NCBI GenBank assembly: GCA_964019425.1
Contig: OZ025780.1
Span: forward strand, 1,116,001-1,180,000
Direction of reading: 5' to 3'
Source: Flectonema sp. DT1601
Taxonomy: Eukaryota
Length of the DNA stretch: 64,000 bases
This document shows, in pieces, positions 5,545-56,191 of this stretch. The notes under the pieces were generated by a model. It was not told the origin of the DNA, did not search any database, and worked only from the letters and a program-made list of their open reading frames with translations. How positions within the stretch are numbered: the stretch's first letter is position 1; every line of letters starts with the position of its first letter. The position numbers and the translations under genes are program-made.

Positions 5545-8500
5545 AACCTTCGTATCATCATCGAGGGAACAGCAAATCAGCGCGCACAACAGCAAAGTTA
5601 CAACCAGAACCCATGGAAAAAGAGCCAGATGAAAAAAGTAGATCATCTGTTTGCCAAACCATCACAGCACCGGCACAGAAGAAGTTACGGGCAACAACGA
5701 GGCGGCCGTCTTAGACACTCGCCGCTGTCCAACTTCCACCATCGAAGCGAAAACGTGCAACACCGAAACAAGCGAAACTTCGATGGTATTGACTGGAAGT
5801 TATATGAGAAGAGCTGCAATAGGCAAAGGTTGTCTTTCATAAGAAAAAACCTCTCTCATCGTAAAATCCGCGGAAAACAACCAGGACTTCGAACTTGCGG
5901 TGTAATCTATGCACTGTTTAGACGCTCCGACGGCAAAGTAATATACGTCGGCCAGGCAGCTAACTCAGCACTGGAGCGAGCGCAGTCCCACTGGTACCAG
6001 GCAAAGAAGTGGTCACGTGACAGAAGGCAGAACGAAAATCGTCTGATGCAATACCTGTCGCAGGAAAGGCTACCTCCACTAACAATCCCACTCGAGAAAA
6101 TCCCAAGCAATCATTACCACAATGCTTCGGACTTCTACAGAGCTGCTGCCCCTCGAGAGCAGCATTATATTAATAGTTTTGGAAAACTTCTAAATGTGAG
6201 AGGTTATTACTCACCAAAGCTAAGCTCTCAACGATCGAGAAAACACCAAAACCGCCCGCCACGCCCTGTTCGCCAACAGCAGATGCCATCTTTCAAGTCA
6301 CAGAATGTATACGAGCAGAACAGGTTTTATTTCAGTGAAGTTAACGATGATGGCGAGGACTTTGAATTATTCCAACAATCAAAACCAACCGCAACAATTA
6401 CATTAGAAAATGGTGTGTCATTTGAAGTTGAGACTTCCTACAAATGGTTGCCATCGAAGCTCAACTTTTTATTTGCTATGCCTGAAGACGAATTTTCGAA
6501 CTACGACTTTACTCGTTGGCAAACAAATACAACTACAAAGGTACTTCAATTCCTTCGTTCTAATTTCCACCAAGAACGTTACACAGCCCGTGTAAAGTAC
6601 CTCGAGAGCTGCTTTATGGAAAAATTGAACCCAGCAACACTACGCCGTCAAAAACAAAAAGGAAGCAAACAGCTACTGGCTTAAACTGAACGTCAGCCAC
6701 AAGGCCTTAGATAGATTGAATCTAGGAGCAATTCTACACAGTGACGAAGTTAAGGCAGTCTGTCCAAATTTAAAAACCTTAAGCAGAACTAGAATCTGTC
6801 ACAAACTGGGTACAACTGTAGGAGATATTGTATTAAACGCCACTTCTGTTGGGAATGGATGCGATGAACCCCTCTGTTCACCATGTCCCTGTTGTACTCT
6901 CGTTCCAGGAAGTATTAAATTCGATGGCCACGCCTGCGGTCTAGCAGTAAATCTTCCCGTATCTGCCGAATTACGAGTTTGCACGAGGACAGAAATTCAG
7001 AGTTCCAAAGCACCCCGCTGCAACAATGGGCTCGCTCGAAAGCGACATAGCAGTTTACGTAGATAAAGCTTACAGAAACACCACTGACGATATTAAACTT
7101 CGCTTCAAAAACGTAATTCTTAAGCATCTCCACACCAAACTAAGCCGAGACCTTTCATTCCTTGACTCCCCGCTGTCAAACAAGGCTCTCAAAGAACTTT
7201 CTTCACTACAAAATTCGATGGTTCTCTTAAAAGTAGACAAAGGACAACATGATATTGGTTTCATCTGTAAATCCTTCTACCTGAGTCTCCTCAGCAAACA
7301 ATTAGGAGGTCCAGCCTATCAACAATTGAAAGCAACAGAGGAAATCACTCTAGCCTTCTTAGCTGAGAATAATAAAATCTTAGGAAACAAGCATGCAGAT
7401 AGACTACCACATCTCTACGGCATGATTAAATTGCACAAGTCAGCTATTGGGATGAGATGGATTTCGGGAGCCTCTTCACTCACAGGAACGGAGAAGCAGC
7501 GTCAATTAGACAAGGAGCACAAAACGGCACCCGCAACAGCCACAACACACGCCCATCTGCATCTATCAAGTATTCTTAAAAATGTGATGGCTCTACTAAA
7601 AGAAAAAGATATGAATTCAAAATACAAACGTTATTGGATAGTCGAATCTGATAAAGACATAGCTGCTGATATTAAATTAAACGCAACTCGACTAAAAGGC
7701 CTATCTCCCAAGACACACGACTTCACTACGATGTATACACGACTACCCCACCAGGAGATCAAAGATAAAGTGAATGAAGCAATTAAAGAAGCATTCGAAT
7801 TCAAGAATATTATGCGACTCGAATCTAATGACCCTGCGACCTACCGTGCTTTATCACAGTTGGAATGTAGAGCGCTTTTGTGTGGATAATTCTCTAATTT
7901 CAATGGGAGGAAAACTATGGAGACAAGTAGTTGGCATTCCCATGGGCGGCAACGCAAGTAGCGATATAGCTAATCTCTACTGTTACAGAATCGAATCTAA
8001 ATTTATGGATGACCTTGTAACAAAAGGAGAGTTAGATTTAGCACGCAAACACGACTACTCTTGCCGGTACATAGACGATTTCCTTACATGGAACTGCAAC
8101 CCACCACCAGCAGAATTATACTCCATGAACTACACCGAGACCTCTAATGGTATTGATGATGTTTCATACATTGGAATTAGAATCCGAATCGAAACCACCA
8201 GATCAAACAACAGGTGGATACGTCTAAGCGTTAACGACAAGGCGCGTGGTTGGCATATCATACCAACAAGATTCACCCACCAGCACTCAGCTGCTCAAGA
8301 ATCGATGGGTACTGGTATCTTCACCACCATGCTCCTACGAGCACTCAGAATCTGTAATAATCAGGCAGATCTTCTACAAGAGCTCGAGTTCGTAACATAC
8401 AGACTACTCAACCGAGGATACAAGTTTAAGAACCTCGCAGTAGCTTGTCACAGCTTTATCAACTTATATATTGACGATGGCAATGTTGCAGCTGCAATTC

Positions 8501-9465
8501 GAAGACGACTAAATATTACTTCCGAAAAGTTTAATCATGGTATCCCTGTAAGCGACGAAAAAGATACCATTAATCATAAAAGTTCCACACTTCACACCTT
8601 AGACAAACGATTCCCAATACAATCACATCAATCTTCAGGGGAAGGTCTAATCGGAGGTGAGTGTGGATGGGCATCGCTGAATTTTGTTGCAGACCATCTT
8701 TATCTTGACCGAATTAATTTCAGCTATTTGCAAGAACTACAACAAACATTCTACGAAGAACATCAAAAAGTAGAACCTGGCAGCAACGAGCAAAAACCAT
8801 CCCCGGATGGCTGGTTCTCTTTAACCGTTCTGGGGGTAGCAAGTAAACATAAACTCAACAGGGAAATCCACCAATATGTTTTTGTTGCAGACCATCTTTA
8901 TCTTGACCGAATTAATTTCAGCTATTTGCAAGAACTACAACAAACATTCTACGAAGAACATCAAAAAGTAGAACCTGGCAGCAACGAGCAAAAACCATCC
9001 CCGGATGGCTGGTTCTCTTTAACCGTTCTGGGGGTAGCAAGTAAACATAAACTCAACAGGGAAATCCACCAATATGTAGATCCCAGTTCTATGGACTACC
9101 CAACAATAGCCGCCGCATTCATTTTAAACAAAGCTGGTGCTAGAATGTCACACTACATGGTGGCCCTTGTCTCCTTTGATTCCATTATTGTTAGAGACAT
9201 TCTCAAAGGAGCGACAGACCGACGATTATCATTCGACCATTTTGACAGACATTTTAAACGCCCAGAATATTGTTTTCACATGATTTTAAAAAAGACTCTG
9301 CAGGATAATAATAATGATAACGACTGTACCATGGCACCCTCGAATGAAGGAATTCTACTCCTCACCAACACTAAGGAAAAGCGCAAGAAAGACGACTACA
9401 GCTCCGATGAAGGAGAACTCGCACTCGTAATAAAACGAACAGATGTAGAAGAGATAGAACGCTGA
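5545..9465 (+). pseudogene. Frameshifted EN-RT-protease polyprotein ORF of PLE family A (pieces 5509-6684, 6716-7066, 7026-7889, 7774-9465)
   Basis: Successive overlapping ORFs align colinearly with family B. The breaks are small indels or short deletions, some in homopolymer runs. Confidence 0.85.
8683..9078 (+). repeat. In-frame 198-bp tandem duplication (66 aa) inside the protease-like domain
   Basis: FVADHLY...EIHQYV occurs twice with essentially identical DNA (8683-8880, 8881-9078). Family B has one copy. Confidence 0.95.
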
Positions 9466-9511
9466 TCAAAAGCAAATATATGCTAGCCCGTCCTGGCGAG
9501 CTCCGATGGAC
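9463..9511 (+). ncRNA. Conserved cis-acting junction/pseudoknot RNA starting at the PLE stop codon (family A)
   Basis: Hairpins AGCA/TGCT and GCC/GGC. Loop GTCC is complementary to downstream GGAC, and family B has ATCC/GGAT (compensatory change). Confidence 0.6.
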
Positions 9512-9578
9512 ATTAAGAAATCAGTTCTTTTGAAATAGACCAATTGATGGATCCGATTTATTATTTAACTGGAATGAA

Positions 9579-9644
9579 GTCCTTAGAACTTACTGATGAA
9601 GGCCTAAGAGGGACAAGTAGTATAAGATTAAGGCCTGAAACTAC
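9579..9644 (+). ncRNA. Hammerhead ribozyme, non-circularly permuted (family A)
   Basis: CTGATGA at 9593-9599 and GAAA at 9637-9640. Stem II AGGCCT/AGGCCT (9600-9605/9631-9636), stem III GTAGT/ACTAC (9617-9621/9640-9644), stem I CTTA/TAAG (9589-9592/9623-9626). Predicted GUA cleavage after 9622. Confidence 0.85.
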
Positions 9645-9757
9645 GTATTCCACAGTGTATTATGGAACAGCAGAACAATGTGTTTTTATAACTTTTCTTT
9701 TTTATATTTTATTTTAGTGCACTTTTTTATAACAAACTCATATTCTAACTACTAGCC

Positions 9758-12700
9758 ATGCCGCTAGAAAAGATTCCGGATTGCAATTACAACAACGCAG
9801 CGGATTTCTACAGAGCTGCCGCACCACGTGAACAGTATTATATTAATTCCTTTAAAAGTCTATTAAATACGCGTGGCTATTATGCACCAAAATTGAGTAC
9901 GAACAGAAATCGCACAAGAAACAACCGCCAACCTCCACCTGTAAGGCAACAACATCTTGCTACAGAAAACTTCTACAACTTCAACGAAGTAGCAGATGAC
10001 GGTTACAATGTGAGAAGCACGTCCTCCAATACACTGCAACCAACAACAATAACACTAGAAACAGGTGTTTCTTTTCAAGTCGCAACGGATAAAAAATGGA
10101 TCCCGTCAAAGCTTAACTATCTGTTTAAGCTTACTGACAAAGAATTCGTTGAATACGACTTCTCGCGTTGGCAGGCACGCTCCACTACAAAAGTCTTGCA
10201 GTTTCTTAGAAGTAACTTTTTTCAAGAACATTACTGCCCGCGTAAAACAGCTGGAGCATTGTTTCATGCAAAGACTAAATCCTGCCAATCTCAGAAGGGA
10301 AAACAAGAAGAAGGATTCGGACACTTACTGGTTGAACTGAATCTTGGCCACAAAGCTTTAGATCGTATTGGTCTTGGCGCTGTTCTTAGATGTGATGAAG
10401 TTAAAGCAACCTGTTCGAACACGCATCTGTAACAAACTTGGAACAACAGTTGGTGATATCGTCTTAAATGCATCTTCAACAAGCATCAATTCAGACTCCC
10501 CGACTCAATCTACTTGCAATTGCAGTATTCAAGAACTGAATAGTCTAAAATACAACGACCATTCTTGCGGACTCGCTATTGATTTACCAGTCTCAGAAGA
10601 ACTAAGGGACTTCTTCGCACGAGGTCAGAAATTTAGAGTCCCAGTGCACCCATCAGCTGCATTAGAATCACTTGAAAATGATATTACTGAATATATAACT
10701 CACGCATACAAGAACGTTGGCGATAACTTTAAATCGATCTTTAAAAACACAATTCTTAAACAATTGCAGCTTAAATTAAGTAAAGACTTAAGCTTTCTTG
10801 ACTCACCATTATCAAATAAAGCATGGGCTGAACTTCAGAATCTTCAATCTCAGTTTGTATTTCTTAAAGTTGACAAAGGACAGCACGATATTGGTTACAT
10901 GTGTAAATTAAATTATTTGCGTTTACTTCGAGAGCAGCTACAAAGTGATTCTTATGAACGCATCACATCAGACGAACCAACTCTACTAGCCAACCTCAAG
11001 AACATGAACATTTCAATCAATGCCCGCCACTCTGATCGACTCCCACACCTATATGGAATGATTAAATTACACAAATCAGCTATCGGGATGAGATGGATTA
11101 CTGGTGTCTCATCCTTCACGGGTATAGCGGAACAACGACAATACGATAAGGATCATAATCTTGCACCTGCTACAGCAACAACATATGCGCACCAACATCT
11201 CTCTAGTATCCTTAAAAATGCGATGACTATATTAAAAGAGAAAGATATGCATTCACGGTTCAAACGATACTGGATTGTGGAATCAGATGATGAAGTCTCT
11301 AGTTCGATTAAACAGAATTTGATGGTTTTGAAAAAATTATCCCCTAAGACTTTTGATTTTACGCCTACCACACAACGCTATTAAAACTAAAGTAAGTGAA
11401 GCACTGCAAGAAGCCTTTAGTTTCAAAAATATCTTACGTCTTGAATCGAGTGACCCTACACGATTCCCTTCTCTTGCGCTTGCAGAATGTCAAAAATTAC
11501 TTGAATTCTTTATTGACCCCTCCTTTATTGCATTAAGAGGTTATATTTGGAGACAAACAATAGGCATCCCAATGGGTGGCAACGCCAGTAGCGATATAGC
11601 AAATCTCTACTGCTATAGAGTTGAATCCGCATATATCGATTCTTTAATTGAAGCAAAAAATCTAGACTTAGCTCGGCAACATGACCACTCGTGTAGATAC
11701 ATCGACGACTTCCTCACCTGGAGTTGCGACCCTCCACCAGCAAGTCTATACTCAATGGATTACACTGATACTTCGAATAATATTGATGATGTCTCTTATA
11801 TAGGAATTCGTATCCGAATAGAGATCACTAATAATAAACGATGGATTCGTTTAAGTGTTAACGACAAAGCCAGGGGTTGGCATATTACGCCAACAAGGTT
11901 TACCCATCAGCATTCCGCAGCTCAAGAATCAATGGGTTCAGGTACGACCATGATCTTACGAGCTTTAAAAATCTGCAACAACCAGGCAGATTTTTTACAG
12001 GAACTTGAAGCGGTAACTTATAGATTACTCAACCGGGGCTATAAATCTGACAATATCAGAGCAGCATGCCTCCGCTTCATTAGCTCTCACATTGATGATG
12101 GTAATACAGCAGCTGCAATGCGTCGACGTATCAACCTTACTTTTGAGAAGTTTAGTCACAAAGTCCCATTAAGCATCGAAAAGGATACAATTAACCATAC
12201 GGGCTCTACAAGCCATTCCTTGGATAAACGATTTCCACCATCCCTACATCAAACATCAGGAGAAGGTCTTCTCGGTGGAGAATGCGGATGGGCAGCGCTC
12301 AACTTCATTGCAGATCATTTATATATCGATAGAATTAACTTCAGTTTTCTGCAAAACTACCAACAGCGATTTTATGAAGAATCTCTTAAGTAGAACCGAA
12401 CAACTCAGAGCATAAACCATCACCAGATGGCTGGTTCTCGCTACAAGTACTTAACATGGCTTGCATGACTAAATTCAACAGGAGAATTGAGTACTTCGTT
12501 AACCCTGCAGATTTCGATTATCCTGAAGCAGCCGCAGCACTTATTCTGCATAAAGCGAAAACAAGGATGATTCACTTTATTGTTGCGCTAGTCTCATTTG
12601 AGTCCATGGTCATCCGAGACATTCTTAAAGGCACAAAAGATTTAAGACTCCCTTTCGACCATTTTGACAAGATGTACCAAATTACAGAATATAGTTTCCA

Positions 12701-12866
12701 TATGATACCATTAAAAGCTCAGACTGATATGGATGTTACAATGACACCTGCGAATATAGGACCTTTGATGGTATGCGAGGATAAAGTAAAACGGAAATTG
12801 GATGACGACTCATCCGTTAACTCGACTGTAATAGTGAAACGACCAGACGTCAAAAATTCAAATTGA
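9758..12866 (+). pseudogene. Frameshifted polyprotein ORF of PLE family B (pieces 9758-10432, 10065-10340, 10368-11384, 11353-12393, 12456-12866)
   Basis: Colinear with the family A protein. Contains small indels, e.g. CTTAAGTAGAA at about 12388 versus AAAGTAGAA in family A. Confidence 0.85.
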
Positions 12867-12916
12867 GCAAAAGCAAATAAACATTGCTAGCCCTATCCTG
12901 GCGAGCTCCGATGGAT
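12864..12916 (+). ncRNA. Conserved cis-acting junction/pseudoknot RNA at the stop codon (family B)
   Basis: GAGC/GCTC closing stem, AGCAA/TTGCT hairpin, GCC/GGC hairpin, and loop ATCC complementary to downstream GGAT. Confidence 0.6.
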
Positions 12917-12955
12917 TTTTATCTTTGAACGATAACAACTTCAACATAGAATGAA

Positions 12956-13023
12956 GTCCCTTAGAACTTACTGATGAAGGCCTAAAAAGGGACAAGTAGT
13001 ATAAGATTAAGGCCTGAAACTAC
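12956..13023 (+). ncRNA. Hammerhead ribozyme, non-circularly permuted (family B)
   Basis: CTGATGA at 12971-12977, AGGCCT at 12978-12983 and 13010-13015, GTAGTA at 12996-13001, TAAG at 13002-13005, GAAACTAC at 13016-13023. Extra helix GTCCCTT/AAGGGAC. Confidence 0.85.
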
Positions 13024-13135
13024 ATATTCTATTACCCTTTGATGTTAGGAAACTGCAGAAATGAATACTTTTCTTTTAATGATCTCTACTTTTCTTATTC
13101 TCACTTTTCTGTTCTAAAATTAATGATACTAACTA

Positions 13136-14809
13136 CCTAAGAGACAAGTAGTATAAGATTAAGGCCTGAAACTACGTATTCTACAGTGTATTATGGAACA
13201 GCAGGGCAATGTGTTTTTATAACTTTTCTTTTTTATATTTTATTTTAGTGCACTTTTTTATAATAAACTCATATTCTAACTTCAGTAACTACCATGTGGG
13301 GCTCGCTTAGGGTCTACTAGTGGAGGTTGCCAAGCTGCTTCTAGGAAGCAGCATATGACGGGGTATTTCGGTTCTTCGTAACCACTTTCCCTGCAAGGTG
13401 CATTCTACCTAAAGACTCCACCAAGCTAACATATGGCGAGGAGGAGCATGACTGACCATTTCAGTCATTTTCTGCATTAACATAATATTATGTTAATGCG
13501 AATTATTTTGATATTTATTTTTCTTTTATATCCCCATTTTTATTTTCCTAGAAACGCAATTTTGATTATTACTTTTATTTACATCTTTTGCCGCGGTAAG
13601 GTAATGTGAAACGGGCCCTGCTCATCTCTCTATTTTACTCCTTTAAAACTATTTTCCTTTTCTTTCTAAATTAATCTCTCCTCTCTACAGCGCTTTTTAA
13701 AGTCCTGCCTTTAAGGGACTTCCTTCTCAGGAAAATCACGCCACGCGCAGGAAAATCACACCGGCAAGACTCTACGTGTTTTAGTGGAACAGCGAAGCGG
13801 TAAACAGCTACCGTTTAATGCAATTAATACAGCAATTCGCAGCATGGGTGCGGGGAACCTTCGCATCATCGAGGGAACAGCAAATCAGCGCGCACAACAG
13901 CAAGGTTACAACCAGAACCCATGGAAAAAGAGCCAGATGAAAAAAGTAGATCATCTGTTTGCCAAACCATCACAGCACCGGCACAGAAGAAGTTACGGGC
14001 AACAACAAGGCGGCCTTAGACACTCGCCGCTGCCCAACTTCCACCATCGAAGCGAAAACGTGCAACACCGAAACAAGCGAAACTTCGATGGTATTGACTG
14101 GAAGTTATATGAGAAGAGCTGCAATAGGCTGGAAAGGATGCCATTTATAAGAACTCTCATCGTAAAATCTGCGGGAAACAACCAGGACTTCGAACTTGCG
14201 GTGTAATCTATGCACTGTTTAGACGCTCCGACGGCAAAGTAATATACGTCGGCCAGACGGCTATTCAGCACTGGGGCGGGCGCAGTCCCACTGGTACCAG
14301 GCAAAGAAAGTGGTCACGTGACAGAAGGCAGAACGAAAATCGTCTGATGCAATACCTGTCACAGGAAAGGCCTCCACTAACAATCCCACTCGAGAAAATC
14401 CCAAGCAATCATTACCACAATGCTTCGGGCTTCTACAGGGCTGCTGCCCCTCGAGGGCTTTGGAAAACTTCTAAATGTGAGAGGTTATTACTCACCAAAA
14501 CTAAGCTCTCAACGATCGAGAAAACACCAAAACCGCCCGCCACGCCCTGTACGCCAACAACAGATGCCATCTTTCAAGTCACAGAATGTATACGAGCAGA
14601 ACAGGTTTTATTTCAGTGAAGTTAACTGATGATGGCGAGGACTCTGAATTATTCCAACAATCGAAACCAACCGCAACAATTACATTAGAAAATGGTGTGT
14701 CCTTTGAAGTTGAGACTACCTACAAATGGTTGCCATCGAAGCTCAACTTTTTATTTGCTATGCCTGAAGACGAGTTTTCGAACTACGACTTTACTCGTTG
14801 GCAAACAAA
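13136..14809 (+). mobile_element. PLE family A copy 3: partial pseudo-LTR (13136-13281), structured leader, then GIY-YIG region; 3'-truncated
   Basis: 13136-13281 repeats the family A 3' tail (about 9603-9750) but lacks CTGATGA. About 13855-14809 is nearly identical to 5545-6528 with indels. Confidence 0.9.
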
Positions 14810-14858
14810 TTTGCGGGTTTGCGGGTTTGCGAGTTTGCGGATTTGCGGGTTTGCGGAC
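14810..14858. repeat. (TTTGCGGG)n 8-bp tandem array, about 6 units
   Basis: TTTGCGGG TTTGCGGG TTTGCGAG TTTGCGGA TTTGCGGG TTTGCGGA, directly at the break of PLE copy 3. Confidence 0.9.
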
Positions 14859-31900: not shown

Positions 31901-33115
31901 TAATTTAAGAAACCAATGCAACAGGTGATAATGTTATGTTTTATACATCACTCTAAGAGTATACAACGGAAGTCAGCAGAGTTGATTTTGGAGCGATATC
32001 TAGGTCGATGTACCTCAGTCTGCTGCGACGACTTATTTGCGTTGAAAGTCAGGAACTGGGATAAAATGATGTGGAAAGAATGTTAAAACTTGTTAAAAGT
32101 TAATTCTTATAAGGCCACAGTACGTGTTGCTGTATACAAAGTATGCTTGAGAACGACAACACCTCATCGACTAAGGATCTGAGACCCGAGTGCCGAGAGT
32201 GATTTGTTTGTTTTAAGAAAAATGAAAAAAACTACAACACTCGTTGAATAACCAACACAATTCTTCTTTAGTTTGTTTGCATGAGTCGCAAACTTGTACA
32301 CACTCTGTTTGTTTTAAATGCCCATCCAAACCCATCCTTTAGAGAAAGGAAACTTTAAAAAAAAAAAAAAACATCACAAAAAAACCAAAACAAAACGAAA
32401 CTGAGGAAAGGTTCAGACGAAAACATTCGAGCACTACCATGAAACTGTCGAGTGCTGCTGTCTTAATTAAGAAGACAGGAAAAAAAAAACTTTTAGAGGC
32501 TGTACGGTTTTCTAAATCACAAGTATCAACACAAAATAACAAACAGGTTTCATAATTTTACCCAACGAATTAATGGGGATGCCTGGAAAATAAATAAAAC
32601 ATCGCCCGCTTCAGAATTACTTTTTAATCCAAAGTGTTAAAGATTCCGCTATTCCGTTCATTTCTCCCTCAGAATACAAAACAAAATAAAAACAAAAACA
32701 ACAATTAGGGTAGTGAATGTAAGTGCCCCACCGTAATAAAAGCAGCAAGTTGAAGGGAGTCAAAATCAACATGAAATAAAAATTGTTTGAGGGGATGATA
32801 ATTCTTTTCATTGACAACAAAAGGTTTTTGGCAAATTATGAAAACTGCAACGTTTGCCCCAAAAATAGGAATTGCGATCCAAAGAAACCTTTTGAGGTTT
32901 TGTTGAGTATTTTATTTATTTATCGAAGTCAGGGAAGTCAAAGAGAAGCTCACGGCACCAGTCATTTGATACCACAACCGTGAGACTCTCGACCACCGCA
33001 TACAGGAGGGAGAACACTCCGCTGTTGGGTTGTTCTCTCGCCCGAATACAAGTAAATTATTTCTAATTTATTTTTAACAAGTGTGACGCAATAGAGAAGT
33101 ATTTGATTACCAACA

Positions 33116-33490
33116 TAGTTAGTTAGAATATGAGTTTATTATAAAAAAGAAAAATTATAAAAACACATTAGTTCTGCTGTTAGTTAGTTAGTATCATTAA
33201 TTTTAGAACAGAAAAGTGAGAATAAGAAAAGTATTCATTTCCACAGTTTCCTAACATCAAAGGGTAATAGAATATGTAGTTTCAGGAGCCTTAATCTTAT
33301 ACTACTTGTCCCATTTTAGGCCTTCATTCTGCTGTTAGTTAGTATCATTAATTTTAGAACAGAAAAGTGAGAATAAGAAAAGTAGAGATCAATAAAAGAA
33401 AAGTATTCATTTCCACAGTTTCCTAACATCAAAGGGTAATAGAATATGTAGTTTCAGGCCTTAATCTTATACTACTTGTCCCTTTTTAGT
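33116..33490 (-). mobile_element. Nested stack of three PLE 3'-end fragments (family A 33116-33181; family B 33182-33326 and 33337-33490)
   Basis: Reverse complement of the family A and B 3' tails, including partial ribozyme (GGGACAAGTAGTATAAGATTAAGG...TGAAACTAC) and (CTAA)n ends. TTCTGCTGTT is duplicated at 33172-33181 and 33327-33336. Confidence 0.9.
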
Positions 33491-49425: not shown

Positions 49426-49628
49426 TGACCGTTTTCGTAAAAAAAAGTTTACGTTAGTGACGCCTACGTTGTGTCACACAACGATGGCAAAGAGTTAACT
49501 TGTTCCACCGCTGGTGTTTTTTTTTGGTACAGTTTGTATACCAAATAAAGGCTTCCTTTGTAGTATTATAGTTTCTTTTTTATTAAATTTAATTCTCTTA
49601 ATTGTTAGAGGGAAAGACATTAAATAAA

Positions 49629-51845
49629 CTAATGACAGGTGGCGTCAGGCATAGTAATTGACAGCTTACTTGACTTAAAGGTACATTTTACACTGATTGG
49701 AGTCATAGAGTCGAATGGCTTTAAGAATAAGATTTCAATATTCTCACCAGACTGACCAATTAGTTCAACAGTAACTGATGTCTTCTCAACAATGAATGAG
49801 GTGAACCTTCTACTGGATACGGAAACCCACTTGGAAACCTCTCCCATTACAACCCAACCATTATACAAGACTGGTGCTGCTGTCCACATGTTGAAATCCC
49901 ACTTATCAGTTTTTGGAAGCACAATCGGGTTCGAATCGTCAAATTTCTTAACCACATTGGTACTATTGCTCTCCCAAACGACAAACTCAGGGACTGCACC
50001 AGCGCAGAGCTCTGATCTTGTCATTTCATAAGGAGATGACTCAGCTGCGAGAAGGTAGAAAGTTTTGATTCCCGAAACCGTTGAGTCTGTTGACCAAACA
50101 GAACCAGTTGGACCATTCTGGTTTTGACCACTCATGGAATAGAACACAGAGTCCATAAGAGTTGCTGGAGTATCAGGAGCCAGTAACGATCCTGAAGTAC
50201 TGCAAGACTTCATTACGAGAGGGACATCAGTGAAACCGATTTCATCTGATGGAGCAACAGGACCAGTTGAGAGAGTTGATACTACAGAGTGAAGTCTGTT
50301 AAACCTTTCTGTTTTGTCATGATATCTTGATAACCCTTTCTCTCTGTCTGTGGTCCAAAAGTTATCTTTTGTGGCCTTCAATGCGAGTGCGTCACCAAAG
50401 AGACCCGTCACACCCAACGGTCTCCAGTTATCCTCTCCTGGCTGATAGTCTTCTGAAGCACGTGCTTGGGTTACTTGTTGAATTTCAACGGACTGCATAA
50501 TGTGTCTCGGCCAAGACATACAATATTGAATTGTGATACCGTGCTTGGCTGCTCCTTTTCCCATTTGCATAAGCCAATCTCTTGCTAGTGTTGGGCTCTC
50601 AAGGGTACAGTTCAGGTATTCGTATTCATTGAAGAGCCAGTCTTGTTCGTAAGTGTGTAGTCCCCATTTGGTAGCATTTCCAATTAGGTCATCCCAAAAT
50701 CTTTGATCATCTGGAATACTGTGAGGTCCTTCGATAATAAAATTATAATCACCTCCATTCTGCTTCGCGTAGTCGGTATCGCCTGCCCAGTATCTGTTGT
50801 GAGCGACAATTGGCCAATGGGTAGCAGCAGTTACGTTGGCGATACCGTCTGGAAAGATGTCTGGCATGGCAGTCCAATTCTTTACAGCACCTCCTTGACT
50901 CTTGAAGTACCACCAGCTATCCATGAGCCAATATTTGTATGGAAGACTAACCTTGTCAGAATAAGCTTTGATGTCCTTAATGGTTTCCTGATAGTTCTTT
51001 CCTTCCTCAGTGTTGTAGTAGTACCAAGCTCCGTTATCTGTTGAGTATCCCAAGGTGTTTACAGAGAGGTCTTTTTCGTACGTCTCGCGGGTTTTTCCGT
51101 ACTTTTGCAACAACTTAGCACCCCATTCATACATAGCTGTCTTTGGACTACCAGAGTTAGTGTACGACATGATAGTATCAAGTTCATAACCAGCTGGTAC
51201 GTTAGTAATATCACCCATCAGACCATAACCAACAACTGATGAATTAAATGTCAACTGCTGTGAGTGTGACATAAAGTTAGAAGCCGATGAGATCACAACT
51301 GAGTTATCCTTTTCTTTATTAAACAATACTAACGGACCACTGTTTTTAGCACCACCCTGAAGACCACTAACATCAGAAGTGCTACCAATTTGATAAGTAC
51401 ATCCAAGCATCGCTCCCTTATATTGAAGGTAACCCTTGTAAGGTCCATCCTTAATAAGGAAGGACGGGTACTGACTGGAAATCGAATCAGCGCTTGTCTT
51501 GCTACGAGGAACGTTCGTGTAATTCAGTCCAGTTGGGAATCTCTGTCTGAAAATATAAGTCAGTTTGTCGCTGTACTGCAATACGCTGGTTTCAAAATCA
51601 ACAGGAGACCACCTTTTAGTTATCATTGTGTAGAGTCCGATAGCATCACTTCCACTTGAAGTAGTTGTTGAATTCACTTTTAAAGTACCATCTTCAGCGC
51701 AGTACTTCTTTGAGGAACTTGTGACACAGATGTCTCCCATATCCAGGTCGTAGTTTTTCAAAGCCGAGTGCGATTCCAATCGATCTCCGAAAGTCATACC
51801 TGACGTCAACCAACATCCTGCCAATGCCACTCCTGATCGCAGCAT
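49629..51845 (-). CDS. Secreted glycoside-hydrolase-like protein (GH36/clan GH-D-like barrel), paralog 1
   Basis: N-terminal signal-like segment and motifs WLMDSWWY, AHNRYW, YEQDWL, QYCM, RASEDY and GPVAPSD. Confidence 0.7.
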   Translation of the reverse strand: MLRSGVALAGCWLTSGMTFGDRLESHSALKNYDLDMGDICVTSSSKKYCAEDGTLKVNSTTTSSGSDAIGLYTMITKRWSPVDFETSVLQYSDKLTYIFRQRFPTGLNYTNVPRSKTSADSISSQYPSFLIKDGPYKGYLQYKGAMLGCTYQIGSTSDVSGLQGGAKNSGPLVLFNKEKDNSVVISSASNFMSHSQQLTFNSSVVGYGLMGDITNVPAGYELDTIMSYTNSGSPKTAMYEWGAKLLQKYGKTRETYEKDLSVNTLGYSTDNGAWYYYNTEEGKNYQETIKDIKAYSDKVSLPYKYWLMDSWWYFKSQGGAVKNWTAMPDIFPDGIANVTAATHWPIVAHNRYWAGDTDYAKQNGGDYNFIIEGPHSIPDDQRFWDDLIGNATKWGLHTYEQDWLFNEYEYLNCTLESPTLARDWLMQMGKGAAKHGITIQYCMSWPRHIMQSVEIQQVTQARASEDYQPGEDNWRPLGVTGLFGDALALKATKDNFWTTDREKGLSRYHDKTERFNRLHSVVSTLSTGPVAPSDEIGFTDVPLVMKSCSTSGSLLAPDTPATLMDSVFYSMSGQNQNGPTGSVWSTDSTVSGIKTFYLLAAESSPYEMTRSELCAGAVPEFVVWESNSTNVVKKFDDSNPIVLPKTDKWDFNMWTAAPVLYNGWVVMGEVSKWVSVSSRRFTSFIVEKTSVTVELIGQSGENIEILFLKPFDSMTPISVKCTFKSSKLSITMPDATCH

Positions 51846-51907
51846 TTTGTTTTTATTATCCTGAATGAGGAGGTAGAATAACACAAAGTAATCGATTCCA
51901 ATAATTA

Positions 51908-52132
51908 TTATTTATCCTCGTATTGTCTAACAAGGAGCGAATAGTATTTATCTACAGCTGAGTCATCTTCGTTTAGTAGCGGAACCATTACTCCGTCGAC
52001 TCTACCAATTCGAAAACTAGAGTCGGGAAGTGCCTTTCTTATGAAGAGTAAACATGATATACTCAACCTGACACATACTCTTGACATTCTTCCTTCTTCT
52101 ACTTTACTCAGAAGTTGGGATACGACTTGCAT
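51908..52132 (-). pseudogene. Truncated duplicate of the HORMA gene (first ~59 codons)
   Basis: Identical to 48760-48937 up to the duplication junction, then unrelated sequence and a stop. Confidence 0.85.
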
Positions 52133-53080
52133 ATTGTGCTGTTAGTAACAGAGAAAGACGTTGACATGGGGGTGTTAAAGTATTCGTTTTCTAGAGATGT
52201 TATTTATTTCAGAACAGACCCATCTTGTTTTATACCTTCGGAAGAGATGATAATAAAAAACTACAACACGAGAAAAGTCGTAAAAAGGAGAGTGGTAAAT
52301 GTTTTAAAGTGAACCTTCTCACTAACAAAGGATTTCTCGCCGCAAGCTTTAAATATTGTTAGTTTAAATCATCACGTTCATGGAGAGAGCACTTTTGGAG
52401 TCTGGTGCTTATTTTTATTTTCTTTATTTCAAAATGCTATTTTCAAGCAGAAGAAATTCGCTTGAGACTTATTGTGTCCCAATAGTGAAATAATTTATGT
52501 CTTCTATCTGAAGATTCATCGTTCGTAGATAGGAAAAAAATCCGAAAAGAAAAAAAAAAATAAATAAATAAATATAATTGAGCCTTTGATCTTGTTCAGT
52601 AATTCCTGAGGGTGAAGTATAATGGGGGTTAAAGAATCACTTGAATAGGGCTTGGCGCTGCTAGTCGGAAATCAGAAACACCCTGTACGAACACGCACAA
52701 AACGGTTTTGCTTTTTCGCAGTCGCTGAGACCGATTTAACCTAAAAGTAAGAAGTTGGTTTGGACTAGTTTCAGCGACGCAACCAGAGAAAAGGAAAAGG
52801 GAGAAAAACACGGAGGGGAAAACGGAGAACGGAATTGTGAACTGTGATCTACCGGGTCAATCATATTTCCAACCATACAAAAAAGTGTGGATGCAAAAAA
52901 AAAAAAAGCTTACGTTAGTGACTTTCACACAACGATGGCAAAGAGTTAACTTGTTCCACCGCTGGTGTTTTTTTTTGGTACAGTTTGTATACCAAATAAA
53001 GGCTTCCTTTGTAGTATTATAGCTTCTTTTTTTATTAAATTTAATTATCTCAATAGTTAGAGGGAAAGACATTAAATAAA

Positions 53081-55297
53081 CTAATGACAGGTGGCGTCAG
53101 GCATAGTAATTGACAGCTTACTTGACTTAAAGGTACATTTTACACTGATTGGAGTCATAGAGTCGAATGGCTTTAAGAATAAGATTTCAATATTCTCACC
53201 AGACTGACCAATTAGTTCAACAGTAACTGATGTCTTCTCAACAATGAATGAGGTGAACCTTCTACTGGATACGGAAACCCACTTGGAAACCTCTCCCATT
53301 ACAACCCAACCATTATACAAGACTGGTGCTGCTGTCCACATGTTGAAATCCCACTTATCAGTTTTTGGAAGCACAATCGGGTTCGAATCGTCAAATTTCT
53401 TAACCACATTGGTACTATTGCTCTCCCAAACGACAAACTCAGGTACTGCACCAGCGCACAGCTCTGATCTTGTCATTTCATAAGGAGATGACTCAGCTGC
53501 AAGAAGGTAGAAAGTTTTGATTCCCGAAACCGTTGAGTCTGTTGACCAAACAGAACCAGTTGGACCATTCTGGTTTTGACCACTCATGGAATAGAACACA
53601 GAGTCCATAAGAGTTGCTGGAGTATCAGGAGCCAGTAACGATCCTGAAGTACTGCAAGACTTCATTACGAGAGGGACATCAGTGAAACCGATTTCATCTG
53701 ATGGAGCAACAGGACCAGTTGAGAGAGTTGATACTACAGCGTGAAGTCTGTTAAACCTTTCTGTTTTGTCATGATTTATTGATGACCCTTTCTCTCTGTC
53801 TGTGGTCCAAAAGTTATCTTTTGTGGCCTTCAATGCGAGTGCGTCACCAAAGAGACCCGTCACACCCAATGGTCTCCAGTTATCCTCTCCTGGCTGATAG
53901 TCTTCTGAAGCACGTGCTTGGGTTACTTGTTGAATTTCAACGGACTGCATAATGTGTCTCGGCCAAGACATACAATATTGAATTGTGATACCGTGCTTGG
54001 CTGCTCCTCTTCCCATTTGCATAAGCCAATCTCTTGCTAGTGTTGGGCTCTCAAGGGTACAGTTCAGGGCTTCGTATTCATTGAAGAGCCAGTCTTGTTC
54101 GTAAGTGTGTAGTCCCCATTTGGTAGCATTTCCAATTAGGTCATCCCAAAATCTTTGATCATCTGGAATACTGTGAGGTCCTTCGATAATAAAATTATAA
54201 TCACCTCCATTCTGCTTCGCGTAGTCGGTATCGCCTGCCCAGTATCTGTTGTGAGCGACAATTGGCCAATGGGTAGCAGCAGTTACGTTGGCGATACCGT
54301 CTGGAAAGATGTCTGGCATGGCAGTCCAATTTTTTACAGCACCTCCTTGACTCTTGAAGTACCACCAGCTGTCCATGAGCCAATACTTGTATGGAAGACC
54401 AACCTTGTCAGAATAAGCTTTGATGTCCTTAATGGTTTCCTGATAGTTCTTTCCTTCCTCAGTGTTGTAGTAGTACCAAGCTCCGTGATCTGTTGAGTAT
54501 CCCAAGGTGTTTACAGAGAGGTCATTTTCGTACGTCTCGCGGGTTTTTCCGTACTTTTGCAACAACTTAGCACCCCATTCATACATAGCTGTCTTTGGAC
54601 TACCAGAGTTAGTGTACGACATGATAGTATCAAGTTCATAACCAGCTGGTACGTTAGTAATATCACCCATCAGACCATAACCAACAACTGATGAATTAAA
54701 TGTCAACTGCTGTGAGTGTGACATAAAGTTAGAAGCCGATGAGATCACAACTGAGTTATCCTTTTCTTTATTAAACAATACTAACGGACCACTGTTTTTA
54801 GCACCACCCTGAAGACCACTAACATCAGAAGTGCTACCAATTTGATAAGTACATCCAAGCATCGCTCCCTTATATTGAAGGTAACCCTTGTAAGGTCCAT
54901 CCTTAATAAGGAAGGACGGGTACTGACTGGAAATCGAATCAGCGCTTGTCTTGCTACGAGGAACGTTCGTGTAATTCAGTCCAGTTGGGAATCTCTGTCT
55001 GAAAATATAAGTCAGTTTGTCGCTGTACTGCAATACGCTGGTTTCAAAATCAACAGGAGACCACCTTTTAGTTATCATTGTGTAGAGTCCGATAGCATCA
55101 CTTCCACTTGAAGTAGTTGTTGAATTCACTTTTAAAGTACCATCTTCAGCGCAGTACTTCTTTGAGGAACTTGTGACACAGATGTCTCCCATATCCAGGT
55201 CGTAGTTTTTCAAAGCCGAGTGCGATTCCAATCGATCTCCGAAAGTCATACCTGACGTCAACCAACATCCTGCCAATGCCACTCCTGATCGCAGCAT
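53081..55297 (-). CDS. Secreted glycoside-hydrolase-like protein, paralog 2
   Basis: Same motifs as paralog 1, differing at about 9 amino acids. Confidence 0.7.
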   Translation of the reverse strand: MLRSGVALAGCWLTSGMTFGDRLESHSALKNYDLDMGDICVTSSSKKYCAEDGTLKVNSTTTSSGSDAIGLYTMITKRWSPVDFETSVLQYSDKLTYIFRQRFPTGLNYTNVPRSKTSADSISSQYPSFLIKDGPYKGYLQYKGAMLGCTYQIGSTSDVSGLQGGAKNSGPLVLFNKEKDNSVVISSASNFMSHSQQLTFNSSVVGYGLMGDITNVPAGYELDTIMSYTNSGSPKTAMYEWGAKLLQKYGKTRETYENDLSVNTLGYSTDHGAWYYYNTEEGKNYQETIKDIKAYSDKVGLPYKYWLMDSWWYFKSQGGAVKNWTAMPDIFPDGIANVTAATHWPIVAHNRYWAGDTDYAKQNGGDYNFIIEGPHSIPDDQRFWDDLIGNATKWGLHTYEQDWLFNEYEALNCTLESPTLARDWLMQMGRGAAKHGITIQYCMSWPRHIMQSVEIQQVTQARASEDYQPGEDNWRPLGVTGLFGDALALKATKDNFWTTDREKGSSINHDKTERFNRLHAVVSTLSTGPVAPSDEIGFTDVPLVMKSCSTSGSLLAPDTPATLMDSVFYSMSGQNQNGPTGSVWSTDSTVSGIKTFYLLAAESSPYEMTRSELCAGAVPEFVVWESNSTNVVKKFDDSNPIVLPKTDKWDFNMWTAAPVLYNGWVVMGEVSKWVSVSSRRFTSFIVEKTSVTVELIGQSGENIEILFLKPFDSMTPISVKCTFKSSKLSITMPDATCH

Positions 55298-56191
55298 TTT
55301 GTTTTTATTATCCTGAATGAGGAGGTAGAATAACACAAAGTAATCGATTCCAATAATTATTATTTATTCTCGTATTGTCTAACAAGGAGCGAATAGTATT
55401 CATCTACGTTCGTGCGGTAGCTGTCAGAAAAAAAAGATTTTCTCCTGGAAAGCAAGGTTTTTACAACAAATAAAAGTGAAGTTGTGGACGCACAGAGACA
55501 CATGTTGATCACAACAGCAAGAACTTGGCTAGCTGGGGAACGAGATAACAGACAGTATCTTAAATCACTTTATAACAGCAGAGGCAAACAACTACAGGCT
55601 GGCACGTCAAGAATCGGAGATTGCGATGTACCGCAGATGACTTCCGACGATGCTTCGATTCCAGAGTCGATTGTGGCTGACTGAACGTTAATAAAAAACA
55701 CCAGTAGCGGTTAACAATAGTACACAGATGGCAAGTGTTTAGAATCATTATCGCTTGTGCCCCTTTGTGGCGCACTTCTGGGAGCAAACAATCTCTGTTG
55801 CTGCAACGCAGCATAGCAACTGTCAGCCTCTTTTTTTGCAACTTTTCAGAGAGTCTAAAATACACTCAGCTGATGATTGAAACTAAAAGCCTACCCGACT
55901 CGGTATCACACACACGGCACAACTCACTGGCGCGCTTCAAAGCGCATGCACAGCTGAGACACAATAACTACCAAAACAGAATCAAAAATGGTTTTCGAGC
56001 AGCAACTGGAGAAGTTGAAAGGATAACAAATTCTCCCTTTCGTTTTTTTTTTTTTTTTTTTTTTTTTCCCTTCTTGTCTTCAAAATACAAACAGTTTTCT
56101 GAAATATGAAAAGACTCGACTCTGACAATGATAATACATAAGGATCCACTATCAGAAGTCTTTAATATAATTGTTTTATAATTTAAAATGT

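Follow-up and report, generated by a model that had tools for sequence, protein, structure and literature searches.

A probable type-CSG hammerhead ribozyme in the 3' UTR of a Penelope-like element of Flectonema sp. DT1601

Hammerhead ribozymes of types I, II and III present the three blocks of the catalytic core, here called C, S and G, in the circular orders CGS, GSC and SCG. The locus described here raises the question of whether a core with its blocks in a different order can be a genuine ribozyme, and what such a ribozyme would do in a Penelope-like element (PLE). An earlier note on the 64,000-nucleotide stretch of DNA analysed here (the window) had read positions 9579-9644 in the order stem I-core-stem II, stem III-GUA-stem I, stem II-GAAA-stem III. 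Direct reading of the sequence and a pairing descriptor agree with it: the region holds a full hammerhead core in the non-circular order C-S-G. The features of this copy, designated family A, are as follows.

9570-9652, plus strand: complete predicted type-CSG hammerhead, family A, outer helix included (sequence, descriptor and fold)
9570-9576, plus strand: outer helix P0, 5' strand, pairing with 9646-9652 (7 pairs, mean pair probability 0.89)
9579-9584, plus strand: helix linking stems I and II, 5' strand, pairing with 9609-9614 (6 pairs, one U.G)
9589-9605, plus strand: block C, comprising the stem I 5' strand (9589-9592), CUGAUGA (9593-9599) and the stem II 5' strand (9600-9605) (sequence and descriptor)
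9609-9614, plus strand: helix linking stems I and II, 3' strand, pairing with 9579-9584 (descriptor and fold)
9617-9626, plus strand: block S, comprising the stem III 5' strand (9617-9621), H17 (A9622) and the stem I 3' strand (9623-9626) (sequence and descriptor)
9627-9630, plus strand: stem I-stem II linker, 4 nt (descriptor)
9631-9644, plus strand: block G, comprising the stem II 3' strand (9631-9636), GAA (9637-9639) and the stem III 3' strand (9640-9644) (sequence)
9646-9652, plus strand: outer helix P0, 3' strand, pairing with 9570-9576 (fold)

Stem I (9589-9592 with 9623-9626) has four Watson-Crick pairs, stem II (9600-9605 with 9631-9636) has six pairs and stem III (9617-9621 with 9640-9644) has five, and by the descriptor all 15 of 15 pairs are Watson-Crick. 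Stem III includes A15.1-U16.1 and C15.2-G16.2. CUGAnGA, GAAA and the UH bases adjoin stems I, II and III as in other hammerhead cores, and the blocks, each uninterrupted, follow one another as C, S and G, the order that makes a hammerhead type CSG. The pair at 10.1-11.1 is A9600-U9636 and not the G-C of the published CSG descriptor, in which G10.1-C11.1 is a search setting and no part of the type-CSG definition. From hammerhead geometry, the cut is predicted between 9622 and 9623, 3' of A9622 in a GUA triplet, which is the site that the earlier note had also derived from the core. We have very little doubt that the fold is real, and we consider cleavage at 9622 likely. Overall, we read 9579-9644 as a real and probably active hammerhead of type CSG that differs in its A-U closing pair and its outer helix and sits in a new setting.

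In the window, the pairing descriptor, run for all six block orders, gave two matches, the family A copy and 12947-13031, and none in the orders of types I, II and III; CSG was the sole order found, as expected from the claim that the strand order belongs to none of these types. The null consisted of 2427 dinucleotide shuffles of the window on both strands (310.7 Mb), in which the relaxed pairing descriptor gave two CSG matches, neither as strong as the family A copy. The bare motif without pairing was not significant, with at least two matches in 23 of 100 shuffles, and the folding z-scores of the region were modest (-0.9 to -1.9). Rfam returned no hammerhead at the gathering score across the window and none at E<=10 in 9400-9800. 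Rfam models and genome descriptors miss the CSG order, so the anticipated blindness of type I-III descriptors held.

The three stems and the 4-nt linker were correctly drawn in the earlier note, which overlooked the helix linking stems I and II (the I/II helix) and the outer helix 9570-9576:9646-9652. The fold likely reaches past 9579-9644 and spans 9570-9652. The minimum-energy fold holds the I/II helix, P0 and stem III, with pair probabilities of 0.78, 0.89 and 0.98, respectively. The I/II helix has six pairs in family A (one U.G) and seven in family B, and in contigs of sequencing runs X1 and X3 a change of U9583 to C turns the wobble U.G into C-G. P0 shows a compensatory change, with G9571-C9651 in family A replaced by A-U in the family B copy at 12947-13031. 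Singly, both helices are weak: 612 of 3000 random flanks equalled the I/II helix in A and 120 of 3000 in B, and the corresponding counts for P0 were 153 and 40 of 3000. Three features stand against the full model set out below. An A-U in place of G-C at 10.1-11.1 usually slows hammerheads; stem I, of 4 pairs, is worth about -3.8 kcal/mol; and the nested minimum-energy fold closes the loop meant to supply stems I and II (-18.5 versus -11.8 kcal/mol with that nested part open, both values referring to nested folds, with pseudoknots outside the model). In addition, a 2-nt insertion in stem II occurs in one B-type contig of run X1 and in the window fragment 33270-33327.

Both matches lie in the tails of Penelope-like elements, whose copies and fragments in the window are listed here.

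5545-9750, plus strand: Penelope-like element, family A, likely 5'-truncated, frameshifted (protein motifs; 3' end at about 9750)
9463-9510, plus strand: second conserved 3' UTR motif, unexplained (45 of 52 columns identical to 12864-12915)
9749-13134, plus strand: 5'-truncated Penelope-like element of family B that follows A head to tail (its RT DNA shares 66% identity with that of A)
12947-13031, plus strand: the other full CSG hammerhead, that of family B, with cleavage predicted after 13001 (descriptor; matches the A copy in 79 of 85 columns)
13136-13281, plus strand: short piece of a family A tail that lacks block C (sequence comparison)
13282-14810, plus strand: likely 5' leader (13282-13845, a status inferred) and ORF start (ATG at about 13846) of another family A copy
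33270-33327, minus strand: piece of a family B tail that lacks the core and has 2 nt inserted in the stem II 3' strand (sequence comparison)
33442-33486, minus strand: family B tail fragment without block C (sequence comparison)

The family A ORF encodes, in order, GIY-YIG, CxC, DKG, RT (YIDD) and a C-terminal extension, and stops at 9465. The hammerhead starts about 105 nt past this stop, which, together with the RT motifs, places it in the 3' UTR of a family A PLE, as had been proposed. In other copies, seen in contigs of sequencing runs, the family A 3' end falls at 9750/9751. Between families A and B, identity is 59 of 61 over 9585-9644, 61% in the 3' flank, 37% in the 5' flank and 66% in RT DNA; stems I-III are identical, and the outer helix varies. 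The family B hammerhead belongs to a sister element and therefore reflects shared ancestry and is no independent case. The second conserved motif (9463-9510 / 12864-12915) has small hairpins, and short copies in run X1 start at 9479 and 12861. An HDV-like reading of 9463-9510 was rejected, as the helix order, judged by eye, did not fit and Rfam gave no match.

The window element shows the partial tandem, 5'-truncated copies known from Naiad and Chlamys elements, and in one run X3 contig the B tail is joined directly to 13285. The three tail fragments of the window start 17-27 nt ahead of the cut, and in two of these cases the start is a CTAA shared with the adjacent repeat; these starts rule out, for the three, truncated copies that begin at the ribozyme cut. 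Short TAAC/CTAA repeats mark the element ends and a number of 5' junctions (9740-9750, 13125-13140 and 33110-33340, and also in X1 and X3 contigs), which likely reflects target preference or microhomology. The GIY-YIG domain N-terminal to the RT scored E 0.0016 with Pfam, under the curated cut-off, with its motif visible and RT motifs downstream; by eye, both families carry a CxC motif between endonuclease and RT. The Naiad hallmarks (CCHH in the endonuclease and DKA) were absent from the window element, which has no CxxC inside GIY-YIG and DKG instead of DKA; the Naiad-like loci differ in this respect. The layout fits the Naiad/Chlamys group and the endonuclease appears Chlamys-like; the RT trees were built without reference Naiad/Chlamys sequences. 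Among named proteins, the closest come from Flectonema neradi (56%) and Diplonema papillatum (49-51%); diplonemid relatives were compared as proteins only, with 3' UTRs outside the comparison.

A C-terminal domain with a conserved cysteine motif spans 8620-9330 and about 12290-12866 and recalls a Josephin-like protease. A Chara Chlamys element carries a Josephin-like extension. Neither Pfam nor a PDB sequence search nor a single-sequence fold (pLDDT 35) backed this reading of the domain, and an Atlas search returned only weak papain-type peptidase leads (0.87-0.90). ORF A also contains an exact in-frame 198-nt tandem duplication (8682-9077), which may be an assembly artefact. By eye, a possible intron (GT...pyrimidine tract...AG) lies at 13590-13690, within what is likely the family A 5' leader, and 5' leader introns have been described for other PLEs. 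Elsewhere in the window, a 2.5-kb tandem duplication (49439-51955 / 52900-55407) is 98.6% identical, with a 760-aa reading frame in each half and no Pfam match.

An RT alignment search yielded 43 related loci (37 from metagenomes and 6 contigs in prokaryote bins; 148,956 nt), a set that under-samples distant protists; two protein alignments and one DNA pattern against viral contigs, and phage records, gave no match. The six Penelope-like elements found within bacterial genome bins (L038, L039, L040, L041, L042 and L043) are probably misbinned eukaryotic strays. The first descriptor found CSG in L015, L018 and L038; L029 and L041, with one extra U after the core, were then spotted by eye, and the descriptor was widened (one extra base, span 140) and re-run with its own null. 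In this form it found CSG in 5 of 43 loci (L015, L018, L029, L038 and L041), always on the sense strand and 3' of the ORF. The null gave 16 CSG matches in 282.7 Mb of shuffled loci, 9 of them with an I/II helix of at least 6 pairs, so that about 0.01 matches with CSG order and I/II helix are expected by chance in the 0.3 Mb scanned. In an RT tree of 39 loci (4 with fewer than 150 residues were dropped), the five are exactly all members of one starred clade (99/98). A single origin of all CSG-bearing elements was neither rejected nor demonstrated (p-AU 0.118) in a tree with long branches, among them that of the window elements.

Pairs in the five loci and two window copies were listed by core anchoring, because a plain DNA alignment of the seven sequences loses stem register. 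Stem sequences differ among the five loci with pairing kept, a result partly built into the descriptor. Two features lie outside the descriptor's demands: C15.2-G16.2 is present in 7 of 7 sequences, and so is an I/II helix of 6-14 pairs (7-14 in the 5 related loci, where 0, 0, 23, 26 and 527 of 3000 random flanks were equally good). The catalytic bases and the NUH triplet (GUA or GUC) are likewise kept in 7 of 7, with RTs that are 24-28% identical. All five related loci have G-C at 10.1-11.1, versus A-U in the window copy, and their stem I-stem II linker measures 0-4 nt. Stem II is self-complementary in the window copies and not so in 3 of the 5 loci, so the palindrome is no general need.

We also consulted published consensus sequences. 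Naiad and most Chlamys elements have been reported to be without canonical hammerheads (Craig et al. 2021, PMC8557442), an absence used there to suggest that hammerheads may just parasitise PLEs; the same report lists 8 unexplained "half-core" cases with halves 35-50 nt apart, compared with 37 nt in the window copy. In the available supplement of PMC8557442, one six-letter core motif occurs at 81 places, of which 79 were read by eye, with no computation, a procedure that misses motifs lacking C11.1 or broken by a line end. The C-S-G layout, together with the I/II helix, was clear in 7 nematode Naiad consensus sequences, four named from the next header (Naiad-1, -2 and -3_Nbra and Naiad_Hpol) and three from file order (Naiad_Ppac, _Parc and _Asuum). 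Among the 8 half-core entries, 3 are CSG (Parc, Nbra-3 and Hpol) and 1 has G before C (Ovul), the remaining 4 lying outside this reading. For Chlamys, no CSG-like place was seen by eye among these 79 of 81 motif places, and two likely Physarum Chlamys places resemble type I with a long loop II.

The earlier note was right that non-circular orders are rarely reported, and the particular order is already known: type CSG was described in 2023 as a non-circular permutation in 5 soil-DNA sequences, 2 of them unique (Eckert et al. 2023, PMC10085705). Both, CSG-1 and CSG-2, were cleaved where predicted during transcription, with rates of 0.004 and 0.026 per min; the discoverers graded the evidence for biological relevance as weaker, and the part of PMC10085705 available to us names no host element. 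The window copy shares with them the 4-nt linker and the I/II helix, and differs in its stem I of 4 pairs (theirs has 6), GUA triplet, self-complementary stem II, outer helix and retroelement host. The published CSG descriptor would miss it because it asks for G10.1-C11.1 (PMC10085705). Type-SGC (HRIMA-1, PMC10085705) has another block order and comes from metatranscriptomes, beside hairpin ribozymes. As in the type I PLE hammerheads (Cervera and de la Pena 2014, PMC4209133), the core sits in the repeated terminal part of the PLE; those have a circular order, a short or missing helix III and, in animals, a dimeric form, whereas the window copy is non-circular with a stable stem III. With Naiad/Chlamys (PMC8557442), the window element shares GIY-YIG before the RT, CxC, partial tandem 5'-truncated copies and microsatellite-like ends, and with Chlamys an endonuclease without the CCHH cysteines; it differs in its DKG and its long branch with diplonemid elements. 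In the literature within reach, which largely excluded subscription papers, nothing was found linking type CSG to retroelements; the term appeared in one paper only, and the available parts of PMC13725137 and of a preprint from 2026 that deals with retrozymes and PLEs do not mention CSG. Thus the block order itself is known, and the retroelement host is new as far as the literature found goes.

The reading that we favour, and consider probable, is that of a C-S-G hammerhead in the 3' UTR of a PLE with an N-terminal endonuclease, which is predicted to fold as a single molecule and to cut itself after A9622, and which likely trims tandem read-through transcripts to unit length. The layout suggests that two hairpins, the I/II helix and stem III, would arise first, held together by the outer helix; the loops of both hairpins would then pair with each other to form stems I and II, building an ordinary core as a double pseudoknot. 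The core would fold as usual and cut 3' of A9622, leaving the cyclic phosphate and 5'-OH that hammerhead cleavage gives. In head-to-tail arrays, cutting would release an RNA consisting of a 5'-OH, the 128-nt tail, leader, ORF and a cyclic phosphate at the next ribozyme, and such unit-length RNA could be circularised. Genomic copies run uncut past the cut site to 9750, so the template for reverse transcription is presumably uncut or re-joined RNA, and cutting is therefore likely slow or regulated. The tandem-processing role is likely by analogy, being borrowed from a hypothesis for PLE hammerheads quoted in PMC8557442. For a different Penelope element, insertion in vitro did not require cleavage, and cleavage itself depended on protein (PMC11167929). 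Monomer action is plausible, and the self-complementary stem II is also compatible with a dimer.

This compatibility leads to an alternative in which the core is real and assembled in trans, from the block-C hairpin of one copy and the S/G hairpin of another, like dimeric Penelope hammerheads. The self-complementary stem II, the identity of stems I-III between A and B, and the dimeric action of metazoan PLE hammerheads (PMC4209133) would all suit it; a nested homodimer has -43.5 versus -37 kcal/mol for two monomers (6.5 lower), and the monomer is a tight fit, needing two closed loops that share 10 pairs. A length rule for monomers (return strand versus stems II and III) also failed (rho 0.39, p 0.45, n=6). 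However, the usual cause of dimerisation is missing, since stem III is stable in cis; of the 5 related loci, 3 have a stem II without self-complementarity; and the computed cofold dimer is a non-catalytic arrangement. Moreover, single-unit CSG-1 and CSG-2 transcripts were cleaved (PMC10085705, in whose available part no concentration series was found), and we consider assembly in trans unlikely. It is also rather improbable that the fold is conserved while the window copy cuts too slowly, or only with the element's protein, and acts chiefly as a signal in RNA structure or protein binding. The A-U at 10.1-11.1, the 4-pair stem I, the competing nested fold, the copies with a 2-nt stem II insertion (33270-33327 and run X1) and the uncut junction in the inserted genomic copies are consistent with such a role, as are other PLE hammerheads whose activity is low or depends on protein (PMC11167929, PMC4209133); but unless cutting is under selection, the retention of catalytic bases and NUH triplet in 7 of 7 sequences with RTs 24-28% identical is difficult to account for.

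The remaining two readings we regard as very improbable. An ordinary type I ribozyme would take as its stem III the short hairpin that follows GAAA, with a long stem II loop, as the two Physarum Chlamys places appear to do in the available supplement (PMC8557442), and 9637-9647 of family A indeed reads GAAAC, three bases, GUA, resembling a minimal type I. This arrangement reduces stem I to 1 pair, G9645 is A in family B, and the descriptor found no type I order in the window; the downstream CTACGTA hairpin, which the earlier note had singled out for checking, yields no type I ribozyme. A chance origin, with short motifs falling together in an AT-rich 3' UTR, could draw on the commonness of the unpaired motif and the modest z-scores, yet the pairing null in shuffles, the A/B conservation and the nematode Naiad consensus sequences (PMC8557442, available part) oppose it, and it is very unlikely since related loci carry the CSG order too.

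Type CSG, once two similar sequences, gains a host and deep stem variation from 2 window copies, 5 metagenomic loci and 7 nematode consensus sequences. That a scrambled ribozyme is conserved in one and the same position is an argument for selection maintaining self-cleavage, and bears on the open question of Naiad/Chlamys elements reported without canonical hammerheads (PMC8557442). A wider proposal, which we hold tentatively and at somewhat less than even odds, is that CSG is a standing, possibly ancestral ribozyme of many PLEs with N-terminal endonucleases, from diplonemid-like protists to nematode Naiads; that the soil CSG RNAs are their tails; that the "missing hammerheads" are scrambled ones; and that the cut unit-length RNA circularises and templates pLTR-ORF-pLTR insertions.

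A different RT clade, of 28 rows, gave 0 CSG matches. In 14 of its 28 rows (12 distinct), CGAAA lies 23-46 nt upstream of CUGAnGA, another rearranged order; these rows (L002, L003, L004, L006, L008-L011, L013, L014, L016, L026, L039 and L040) have it 3' of the ORF. The strict SGC order was found in only one distinct locus, L006 (L039 has an identical RT), behind a Naiad-like ORF. By eye, L043:4900-5045, which the descriptor missed, is CSG-like, with two small hairpins between CUGAUGA and stem II and a Naiad-like ORF upstream. Finally, L007:880-1060 and L026:2670-2800 each contain two CUGAnGA cores about 85-100 nt apart within a single 3' UTR.
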